Source of the DNA: Escherichia coli
GTDB lineage: Bacteria > Pseudomonadota > Gammaproteobacteria > Enterobacterales > Enterobacteriaceae
Reading direction: 5' to 3' (one strand)
NCBI RefSeq assembly: GCF_044324875.1
Contig: NZ_CP172185.1
Length of the DNA: 64,000 bases
Position 1 is the stretch's first letter. Each line of letters begins with the position of its first letter. The position numbers are program-made. This document shows, one piece after another, positions 38,601 through 41,600 of the stretch.

Positions 38601-41600
38601 TTCCGGACGATGGATTTCACCTGTAAGTATGCGTTCTGCTTTCCATTGATTTAATTCGAGCATCCAGTTAAGTTCATTTTTTCTGGATGTTGCTGTATGG
38701 ATTGTGGATTTATTTTATTAAATATTGAAGGGAATTTCATAACTGCTCCGTAGTAATACTTTCTTTTCTGATTTATCACCCTTGATAAATCAGGATGTGT
38801 TTTATAACTCTGTAGAAAAGGATTGGCTTAACCAATTATTGGGTGTTGAGCCATAACCTAAGGAAGGTTTATCCTCATTATGAATATAATAACAGACGGG
38901 TGTGCCCGTTGGGTCCTTTAGCCCCGAGTGTGAGGGTAGAGAAGAGGAATTTGACTTATAGTCACCAACCCCGTACATGCGATGCATAGGCAGAATGGCT
39001 TTTAGTTCTGCGTCAGAAAATATTGTTTCTTCTTCTATTAAAGCGTACTCTCTGGAATAATATTTTGATCTATAACGAATAGACATTGAGTCATTGTCTT
39101 TTATATGATTTCCTTCGGAATTCTCGCTTACTTCTACAAGATGTTCATCGCTGGTATCGATATTTGTGATTGCCAGGTTATAAGATAATTCAATGGTCAC
39201 TTCATTAGTGTCATCAATTATATTTCTTACTGCAGTCCAGTACTGCATTTGGGCAAGTGGATCATTGTTGATGCCGTTAACTAATACATGCCAAAGATGT
39301 TTTGATGATATTAATTGATCAATGTCATCTGTTGGCAATAAATTGTTATTGCTTAAGTTTAAATATTCCAGTTTTGTAGTGGTTTTCGCGTTTAAATGTG
39401 CAATATGGTTGTCGTTTAAAGTGATTTTTTTCATCCTGGGATGATTGTGTAATATAAGGTCAGTGATCATATTGTGATGGGCACTTAACTCAATCAGAGA
39501 TTCTTGCCGGGAGAGATCCAGCGATGCTAGCTTGTTATAATCAAGATTAAGAAATTTCAGTTTATAACTATCAGAAATATTAATTTTTGTCAGGTTGTTA
39601 TTTTGCGCTTCCAGGTTAACCAATGAATGCTGATTTTTTAAATCCAAATTTTCCAGATTGTTGTGATCAATATAAATATTTTCCAGTTTTGATTCATTTG
39701 GAAAGGTTATCGTTTTAATTTTATTAAAGCTGAGGTTGATATTGACGAGGCTGGCATTGTCAGTAAAGTCAAGACAAGTGAGACAATTTTTTTCCAGATT
39801 TAACGTGTTAACTGTCGAGGGGATAGGCGGTAACTCACTCAAATCAAGATATGACAAATCAAGAGATGCCATGTTCGAATTGTAAGCTTCTTTAATTCGC
39901 TCTACGGCAATAGCTCTTTCTTCACCATTATTAAGCGACTTATTACCCCATTGTGCCAGTCGTTCACAAAAATTGCTGGAGATGGTTTCTTTGTTAGGTA
40001 ATGCGTTATTTAATTGATAACTGGCATTATTTTTTACACAAGCTGTATTAATATTGGTCATAATCACTCATCAATAAATATTATAGTAAGATGTCCCCGC
40101 AGGGTATGGAATAATATTAATTGAGGTGAATGACCAGAAATATCAAAAATTGCTCATTTTTACTTAAGGAGTCATACAGCAGCACTTAAATCAAAAACCA
40201 GCCCAGAGAAGGGCTGGTCAGGAGAGGATGTTAGAACTGATAGGTAATGCCCGTTGCGACGATGTTATCGGTGCGAATATCTACGGCACGGGTAAAGTCG
40301 CTTTCATCAATCAGGTTGATTTTATAATCAACATAGGTCGACATATTTTTGTTGAAGAAATACGTCGCACCAACGTCGATGTACTCAATCATGTCCTGGT
40401 CGCCGTAGCGGCCCAGATCTCTGCCTTTCGATTTCAGGTAAGCGAGTGATGGGCGCAAGCCGAAGTCGAATTGATATTGTGCCACTACTTCAAAACTTTG
40501 TGCTTTGTTAGAGATATAACCATCGCCATAGGTGGTCATGTTTAATGTTTCAGCGTAATTAGCTGCAAAGTAGATGTTGTTGGCATCATATTTTATACCT
40601 GTAGCCCACAGTTCTGCATTCTTACCGGAGGCATTGAGAGGATTAGCAGCGGCTCTTTCCTGCGCATTTGTCCGATCGGATTTGGTATACACCGCACCGA
40701 TACCAAAGCCATCATAAACATAAGTTGAGGAGATACCGAAACCGTCACCATTGGCACGCGTGTAGTCAGCACCATAAAGATGACCATTGTCAGTGCGTTC
40801 ATTTTTGCCTTGATATTGCGCGGCAAAGTTCAGACCTTCAATTAAGCCGAAGAAATCGTAGTTGCGATAGGTTGCCACACCGGTAGTACGGTATGTCATG
40901 AAGACATCTTTCTGACTCCAGGTATCGCCACCAAATTCTGGCAACATATCGGTCCATGAACCAATGTCATAGCCGACACCGTAGTTACGACCATAGTCCA
41001 GAGAGCCAAATTCACTAATTTTTAAACCTGCATAGGCCAGACGGGTCTTGTTACCGCGCGAGCCGTTGGCTTCATCGTTATAGCCTTTAAAATCATATTC
41101 CCAGTGACCAAAACCAATCATTTGATCATTGATTTGCGTTTCTCCTTTAAAGCCGAGACGGGCATAAGTTTTATCACCATCGTCACGCTTATCATCAGTA
41201 AAATAACGTAGAGCGGTAACCTTGCCATAAAGGTCGAGTTTATTACCATCCTTGTTATAGACTTCGGCAGCGTGTGCTACGTTCGCAGCTAACAAACCAG
41301 TTACAACCACCGCAACTATTTTTAATTTCATTTAACAGAATCCTTTTAATTATCGTTAAACGTATTTTCTAAACGAATTTTAAACGGCGTCATTTATAAA
41401 TGACATACTGTTTTTAAAATAGAATGGTGATTAAAAACAATGAGAAAAATAGATGAAATAATATTATTTATCGATATGTGATCGAAGTCGAAATGAAATA
41501 TAAGGTGAACTACTGGTATTTGAAATTTATTTTTTTATATTGTCGGAATTTATCTGATTAACTGCCGGGCCGTAGACCCGACAATTATTTTAGCCACGAC

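Follow-up and report, generated by a model that had tools for sequence, protein, structure and literature searches.

The porin OmpD has been described as the most abundant porin of Salmonella, and relatives of it have been reported from E. coli. The genome paper on enteroaggregative E. coli (EAEC) strain 042 recorded an ompD (Ec042-1601) that seemed to be functional, and paired it with nmpC of K-12 (Chaudhuri 2010). Later, orfs 1601-1599 were placed in an island between yddG and narU, and the K-12 gene yddL was noted to resemble the 5' end of Z2239 (Okeke 2011). Here we analyze a 64,000-nucleotide stretch of an E. coli genome (NCBI RefSeq assembly GCF_044324875.1, contig NZ_CP172185.1), called the window below, which carries a complete porin gene at positions 40231-41331 in this same interval. 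We argue that this gene is very probably an intact E. coli ortholog of OmpD, a trimeric general diffusion porin that is ancestral at the yddG-narU locus and has been lost in most E. coli lineages.

The existence of an intact porin gene here is not in itself new, as it has been known for more than 10 years (ompD of EAEC 042 since 2010, Z2239 of O157, and the relation to yddL since 2011). The present analysis adds the exact breakpoint of the K-12 deletion with its microhomology, explicit evidence for orthology to OmpD, and frequencies in 5,426 genomes. Further additions are the several ways in which the gene has been lost, the changes at the positions where MicC and RybB pair with Salmonella ompD, the recognition of the 96-amino-acid YddL as a deletion stump, and the assignment of yddL, in place of nmpC, as the K-12 counterpart. 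The locus tags ECs2074, ECs2076 and EC042_1601 were not found among the matches listed in our literature search.

Results

A complete general porin gene

The gene and its signal peptide occupy the following positions.

40231..41331, minus strand: porin open reading frame (ORF) of 366 amino acids, from ATG to stop, assigned from the ORF itself, the Porin_1 match, porins in the PDB, OmpD synteny and the tree
41269..41331, minus strand: signal peptide of OmpD type, codons 1-21, placed by alignment with the OmpD proteins of Salmonella, Citrobacter koseri and Enterobacter, and with solved porins at their mature termini

A preliminary description of the window had noted a complete 366-residue porin with a signal peptide and a C-terminal Phe, and this is what the ORF, the full-length Porin_1 match and the terminal TYQF show. 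Porin_1 (Pfam PF00267) is covered over its whole profile (1-337 of 337) by porin residues 27-366, with 448.6 bits against a cutoff of 23.7 (E=2e-134), and the solved structures of OmpK36, OmpC, OmpF and PhoE align end to end with residues 22-366 (E~1e-127 to 1e-119). This match to solved 16-strand porins spans the whole mature protein and indicates a 16-stranded beta-barrel. By alignment with residue 1 of mature solved porins, the N-terminus consists of a Sec signal peptide that ends in A-x-A and is followed by a mature start of the AE(V/I)YNKDGNK type, while the C-terminus reads ATGITYQF, in which the final Phe forms the aromatic end of the beta-signal. All six residues of the pore constriction (K16, R42, R82, D113, E117 and R132 in OmpF numbering) are kept in an alignment with K-12 OmpF, K-12 OmpC and Salmonella OmpD, and the same alignment shows that loop L3 has kept its PEFGGD motif. 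A model from AlphaFold, for which the alignment was shallow (16 sequences) and which serves solely to corroborate the fold, superposes on OmpK36 and OmpC with template-modelling (TM) scores of 0.79-0.85.

No frameshift, internal stop or indel was seen when the porin was aligned with the 366-residue C. koseri ortholog, and the close alignment revealed no disabling mutation. The RefSeq protein is WP_000768393.1, and the window gene shows 0 nonsynonymous differences from the locus of that entry. Between the window allele and that of O157:H7 there are 19 synonymous and 3 nonsynonymous differences, which gives a ratio of nonsynonymous to synonymous divergence (dN/dS) of 0.04; purifying selection on the intact alleles is strong, the mark of a gene that is kept in use. 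The preliminary description had spoken of an extra functional porin. The extra intact gene is plain from the alignment, and the word functional is probably justified for this strain by the dN/dS ratio, the conserved pore residues and the detection of Z2239, the 99.2%-identical O157 allele, by mass spectrometry in an O157 shotgun proteome. A part in adherence has been proposed for Z2239 (Kudva 2012).

The exact porin protein of the window is found on at least 1,000 public contigs. The protein cluster at 90% identity that contains it has a Roseburia LepA/EF-4 as its representative and mixes porins with LepA, an evident artefact of clustering or indexing.

Relationship to OmpD

Gene order compares closely with that of Salmonella and C. 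koseri. In both of these, the order is fdnI-fdnH-fdnG, yddG, ompD, GFA - smvA - smvR and narU - narZ; in the window, it is fdnG, yddG, porin, two leucine-rich repeat (LRR) genes, an insertion sequence (IS) of the IS2 type, and narU. The window porin therefore fills the ompD slot in the same orientation. About 170 nt upstream of the start codon can be aligned among the window, Salmonella ompD and C. koseri ompD, and this alignment includes a conserved GATCACA block and the Shine-Dalgarno sequence AAGGA. The GATCACA block resembles a half-site for CRP, but its left half is poor in all three species, and we claim no CRP site.

Protein identity points the same way. The window porin is 77.6% identical to the C. 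koseri protein, 75% to that of Enterobacter, 73.7% to Salmonella OmpD and 72.1% to C. freundii OmpD, all yddG-linked or OmpD porins; the values are 66-71% for the NmpC/Lc-type porins of prophages and, among the K-12 paralogs, 62.6% for OmpN, 61.7% for OmpC, 60.3% for OmpF and 59.0% for PhoE. The signal peptide follows the pattern MKLK(L/I)VAV.VT.LLA that is common to OmpD-type porins, unlike those of OmpC, OmpN and NmpC, and the N-terminal consensus of the Salmonella, C. koseri and Enterobacter proteins is MKLKLVAVAVT.LLAAG..NA followed by AEVYNK. In a bootstrapped neighbor-joining tree of 18 sequences, 94% of replicates placed the porin together with its yddG-linked counterparts in C. koseri and Enterobacter, and 0% placed it with OmpC or OmpN. 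We conclude that the porin is in all likelihood the E. coli positional ortholog of Salmonella OmpD, with synteny as the main support and a tree that is consistent with it.

Salmonella OmpD (STM1572, historically also called nmpC) thus shares with the window porin its slot directly downstream of yddG between fdnGHI and narU-narZ, the type of signal peptide, the pore residues, the promoter-proximal homology and the length class (362 against 366 amino acids). The two differ in their external loop regions and in GC content (50% in Salmonella, 44% in the E. coli porin), and ompD is followed by GFA-smvA-smvR where E. coli has LRR/EspR1-type genes. The same gene in the same place is known as Ec042-1601 ('ompD') in EAEC 042 and as Z2239 in O157:H7 EDL933. 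We take the allele of O157:H7 ATCC 43888 as equal to Z2239; its identity to that of the window is 98.0% for DNA and 99.2% for protein, and relative to the 042 and O157 loci only allelic differences are seen; LRR gene 1 is intact in the window, as reported for 042, and the IS2 lies beyond LRR gene 2. Among more distant relatives, OmpC and Klebsiella OmpK36 (2J1N, 6RD3) have the same fold and pore architecture and align over their full length, but their identity is ~57-62%, their locus is another one and they fall in another clade. The prophage NmpC/Lc porins are the nearest paralog group and are left unresolved from OmpD by the tree; they differ in being prophage-borne and in their signal peptide, and the K-12 nmpC pseudogene lies at a locus other than that of yddL.

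The preliminary description had assigned the protein to an OmpC/OmpN family, and that label is too loose: a general porin it is, but synteny and phylogeny place it with OmpD. An identity with OmpN was rejected (62.6% identity, another locus, uspF-ompN-micC-ydbK, and 0% bootstrap). Among the NCBIfam models, the porin scored 495 bits against a cutoff of 484 with NF007841 ('porin OmpC'), which is a subfamily model and no equivalog, and it failed the equivalog models of OmpF (459 bits against 583) and PhoE (458 bits against 599). Through NF007841, the NCBI annotation pipeline (PGAP) and RefSeq label this porin 'ompC: porin OmpC' in every intact genome sampled.

A further relative, P0001, is a 365-residue protein on a 2.1-kb metagenome contig of the European Nucleotide Archive; its N-terminal ~120 residues are OmpC-like (MKRKVLAMLVPALLVAGAANA and onward) and the other ~245 are near-identical to the window porin. 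This chimera may reflect true recombination or may have arisen in assembly.

What K-12 retains

In K-12, the annotated order at this locus is yddG, yddL ('porin, incomplete, missing C-terminus'), a frameshifted LRR pseudogene and narU, and there is no intact porin gene; only the yddL remnant is present, as the preliminary description had stated. Two segments of the window define the difference.

41054..41331, minus strand: the part of the porin that K-12 keeps as yddL (b1472), 278 nt, delimited by BLAST of the K-12 locus against the window, alignment and annotation
39516..41053, minus strand: the segment deleted in K-12, ~1.54 kb, made up of three-quarters of the porin gene (its 3' part), the DNA between the two genes and ~550 nt from the 5' end of LRR gene 1

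When the K-12 locus was compared with the window by BLAST, four colinear blocks resulted, of which the first covers yddG and porin nt 1-278 (98%), the second the interior of LRR gene 1 (window 39515-39184), the third LRR gene 2 (38543-37397) and the fourth the narU-proximal DNA past an element that is absent from K-12. Through the deletion, porin nt 278 is followed directly by internal sequence of LRR gene 1, the junction reading GGCTCGCGCGG joined directly to CAAGAATCTC, and the parental sequences have just a CGG microhomology in common at this point. In size and position, the deleted segment agrees with O-island 62 of EDL933, which has been given as 1,548 bp between yddG and narU (Okeke 2011).

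yddL is thus a deletion stump, not a point-mutated gene. Its first 278 nt are identical to the window porin bar 0-2 substitutions, and it shares the upstream region and the yddG neighbor; it spans the signal peptide plus about the first four strands, after which the frame enters the interior of the LRR gene. The true K-12 counterpart of Ec042-1601 is yddL, not nmpC as in the 042 genome paper. A 2023 paper still treated the 96-residue YddL as a possibly functional protein; that functional speculation concerns a deletion stump.

The adjoining K-12 gene yddK/yddJ (K-12 locus 6270..7746, against window 37397..39515) combines internal sequence of LRR gene 1 with LRR gene 2, the two meeting in an overlap of ~11 nt. 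It is a recombinant of the two LRR genes and no insertion, and it represents a second rearrangement of the locus, whereas the K-12 locus had been thought to be 'disrupted by insertion of yddK' (Okeke et al. 2011).

Distribution and loss in E. coli

We surveyed 5,426 complete E. coli genomes, counting the porin as full-length when at least 80% of the gene was matched. A full-length porin was present in 1,111 of them, O157:H7 (98.0%) included, and ~3,156 had partial matches only, nearly all of which, when sampled, were the yddL remnant of 278-284 nt; no match was found in the remaining 1,159. The neighboring yddG was present in 5,413. The first 278 nt of the porin are found at 99-100% identity in K-12 and most E. 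coli. Other lesions were of different kinds: in the one no-match genome inspected, an ST1193 strain, yddG directly abuts narU and the whole interval is gone; in ETEC6333 and related porcine or O139:H1 strains, an IS3-family element splits the porin gene; and in LR-71-1, an IS1 stands in place of the 5' part of yddL. At least four distinct lesions have eliminated or disrupted the porin gene, whereas its intact form shows tight conservation.

Beyond the species, a porin named as that of Escherichia albertii is 91% identical with 79% of the query covered, the N-terminal ~50 residues of that entry not aligning. Synonymous divergence (dS) from Salmonella is 2.4 for the porin, 2.2 for yddG and 0.84 for fdnH. 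Because the value for yddG is far above that for fdnH, the yddG-porin segment is either evolving rapidly or coalesces further back in time than its flank does. At the protein level, yddG (41590..42471) is 85% and fdnH 93% identical to the Salmonella counterparts.

Expression and regulation

A consensus scan found a promoter-like site, ATGTCA-18-TAAAAT, at 41406..41377 on the minus strand, ~50 nt upstream of the start, which agrees with 9 of 12 consensus positions. In Salmonella, ompD is repressed by MicC at codons 23-26 and by RybB early in the coding sequence; this marks the Salmonella gene and does not define the family. We compared the porin with Salmonella ompD at the positions where small RNAs pair.

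41254..41265, minus strand: position corresponding to the MicC target of Salmonella ompD at codons 23-26, GAAGTCTATAAC here against GAGGTATATAAC in Salmonella

In Salmonella ompD, the MicC site comprises 10 nt in codons 23-26 (PMC3333887). It is intact in C. koseri, and in all E. coli alleles, yddL included, it carries two mismatches that leave 6 contiguous pairs as against a duplex of 10-12 nt. The RybB seed match of Salmonella ompD, GCAGTGGC, corresponds to GCGGTGGT in the window gene and is reduced to wobble pairs. When K-12 MicC, RybB and SdsR were paired with the window mRNA from -60 to +150 in RNAduplex, the predicted duplexes were no better than shuffled ones (z = -0.2, -0.9 and +0.7, respectively), while the positive controls gave z = -4.3 for ompC with MicC and z = -2.0 to -2.6 for Salmonella ompD; the SdsR value is not a guide, since, according to the original study, the SdsR-ompD pairing is missed by standard predictors (PMC3333887). 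The duplex analysis also found no counterpart, upstream of the window porin, of the MicC site in the 5' untranslated region (UTR) of ompC. Since the MicC and RybB sites are not conserved, regulation of the porin may differ from that of Salmonella ompD.

Neighboring genes

The porin lies between yddG and the LRR genes, as the preliminary description had it, and the surrounding features are as follows.

41590..42471, minus strand: yddG, aromatic amino acid exporter of the drug/metabolite transporter (DMT) superfamily, upstream of the porin (NCBIfam NF008676 equivalog, 470 bits against a cutoff of 194)
41332..41589, minus strand: yddG-porin intergenic region, 27% GC
40186..40219, minus strand: hairpin resembling an intrinsic terminator, 9 pairs (6 of them G-C) and a T-run, 12 nt past the porin stop
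38802..40067, minus strand: LRR gene 1, an intact ORF of 421 amino acids, 35% GC
37485..38663, minus strand: LRR gene 2, espR1-like, the ortholog of O157 EspR1, to which it is 90% identical over 391 amino acids
36060..37390: IS2 of 1,331 bp with orfA/orfB and a 5-bp GTATG target-site duplication, between the espR1-like gene and narU

LRR gene 1 is split in O157 by a frameshift into Z2240/Z2241 (with a 169-residue product), and in K-12 its 5' part was lost with the yddL deletion. A frame shift of 1 nt separates the first 26 codons of LRR gene 2, which start at an ATG near 38740, from the remainder; the intact ORF begins at an internal Met, and its product would be without the N-terminal secretion signal. 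EspR1 itself is an effector of the O157 type III secretion system. GC content is 44% in the porin, 34-35% in the LRR genes and ~50% in yddG. The LRR genes, which replace the GFA-smvA-smvR of Salmonella, may well have been imported.

The IS2 separates this locus from those of K-12, O157 and strain 50579417, all of which are without it, and is unrelated to the history of the porin. It occupies the same site in the wastewater isolate SW070912 and in several genomes of porcine enterotoxigenic E. coli (ETEC). Across the 7.6-kb locus, the best identity among collection genomes was 99.1% (SW070912 and two porcine ETEC), with none at 100%, and yddG of the window is 100% identical to that of a Danish swine isolate. 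On the other side of yddG, fdnG (42703..45750, plus strand) reads as two ORFs of 195 and 803 amino acids, and the 48-nt gap between them contains an in-frame UGA, which we take to be the normal selenocysteine codon of formate dehydrogenase-N rather than a sign of a pseudogene.

Discussion

The reading that we consider very probable, namely, that the window carries an intact OmpD ortholog, ancestral at this locus and lost in most E. coli lineages, suggests the following course of events. Sec would export the precursor, cleavage would occur after AHA, and the BAM complex would fold the protein through its C-terminal Phe signal; by homology, the 16-stranded barrel would then assemble as a trimer in the outer membrane, where loop L3 probably narrows the pore and small hydrophilic solutes are expected to diffuse passively. 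Its presence between yddG and narU in Salmonella, Citrobacter and Escherichia alike suggests that the porin is ancestral there, and the direction of change appears to be loss, not gain. In K-12-type strains, a microhomology-mediated deletion of ~1.54 kb presumably left the 278-nt yddL fused to the LRR gene, while roughly one in five E. coli genomes, with this strain, O157:H7 and EAEC 042 among them, would have retained the porin beside OmpC, OmpF, PhoE and OmpN.

Several observations weigh against this picture or parts of it. In the tree, a clade of all OmpD proteins that excludes NmpC/Lc had a bootstrap value of only 52%, or 18% on the mature protein; since OmpD is not resolved there from NmpC/Lc, the orthology to Salmonella OmpD rests mainly on synteny. 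The AlphaFold model is of moderate confidence (pLDDT 61, pTM 0.64). The porin has a GC content of 44%, lower than its flanks and lower than the orthologs in Salmonella and C. koseri (50%), and the E. coli branch is long. As for expression, the E. coli porin has not conserved the sites at which MicC and RybB pair with Salmonella ompD, the single O157 study that furnishes the sole protein-level evidence gave Z2239 a low count (2 against 36 for intimin), and the yddG-porin intergenic region, at 27% GC, is very AT-rich. H-NS often silences very AT-rich DNA.

The alternative that survives best concerns how much the gene does, not its identity. The porin might be intact and conserved yet expressed at a very low level under ordinary conditions, like OmpN in K-12, and so have little role in permeability outside special conditions; we regard this as possible, although clearly the less probable state of affairs. 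The AT-rich upstream region with its weak promoter matches and the low Z2239 count fit such quiescence, as does the loss of the gene by several routes from ~80% of E. coli genomes, which marks it as dispensable. Continuing selection on the protein, indicated by the dN/dS of 0.04, speaks against it, and so do the detection of the Z2239 protein at all in a shotgun proteome and the rank of the Salmonella ortholog as the most abundant porin.

A second alternative has been published: from their low GC, Okeke et al. (2011) proposed that the porin and the low-GC LRR genes were acquired recently together, as an island (O-island 62). The patchy distribution in E. coli, the porin with 44% GC beside LRR genes with 34-35% and yddG with ~50%, and the long E. 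coli branch fit such an acquisition. We nevertheless consider it improbable, as Salmonella and C. koseri, which have no LRR genes here, carry a porin beside yddG in the same slot and orientation, the upstream region of the window porin is homologous to theirs, and its dS from Salmonella is no higher than that of the core gene yddG. Moreover, K-12 and most strains have kept the 5' 278 nt, so the seemingly island-less state is a deletion product and not an empty site, and a porin named as that of E. albertii matches at 91% over 79% of the query, apart from its unaligned N-terminal ~50 residues.

An origin of the porin as an NmpC/Lc-type gene of a decayed lambdoid prophage seems to us very unlikely. 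The NmpC/Lc proteins are the next closest group (66-71%) and are not cleanly split from OmpD in the tree, and ompD and nmpC have been treated as one gene (Chaudhuri 2010); against this stand flanks without phage genes (fdnGHI/yddG and narU/narZ), a signal peptide of the OmpD type (MKLK.VAV) and not of the NmpC type (MKKLTVAISAVAAS), and the 94% bootstrap with chromosomal yddG-linked porins. That the gene is an additional copy of ompC or an allele of it, as its RefSeq/PGAP name in every intact genome sampled and the 495 bits against the NF007841 cutoff of 484 would have it, is the least credible reading and is already refuted by tree and synteny, given that NF007841 is a subfamily model, that identity to OmpC (61.7%) is lower than to OmpD-type (72-78%) and NmpC/Lc (66-71%) porins, that bootstrap support is 0%, and that the locus is yddG-narU rather than ompC-micF-rcsD, with no counterpart of the MicC site in the ompC 5' UTR.

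With the porin taken as an intact OmpD ortholog that most lineages have lost, the coexistence of at least four lesion types with purifying selection in ~20% of genomes, together with the lost MicC and RybB sites, leads us to speculate that the gene is under balancing, lineage-specific selection and wired into a regulatory circuit other than that of Salmonella ompD. We hold this to be doubtful at present. If true, the porin would be useful in some niches and costly elsewhere, as a receptor for phages or colicins, a target of antibodies or an entry route for antibiotics.

The value of these findings lies mainly in tidier annotation and interpretation, and less in discovery. Under RefSeq naming, ~1,100 complete genomes seem to have two ompC genes, which can confuse porin-loss calls in antibiotic-resistance genomics. 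About one in five E. coli genomes has an extra general porin, and this matters whenever conclusions on permeability, phage receptors or vaccine antigens are transferred from K-12 to other strains.

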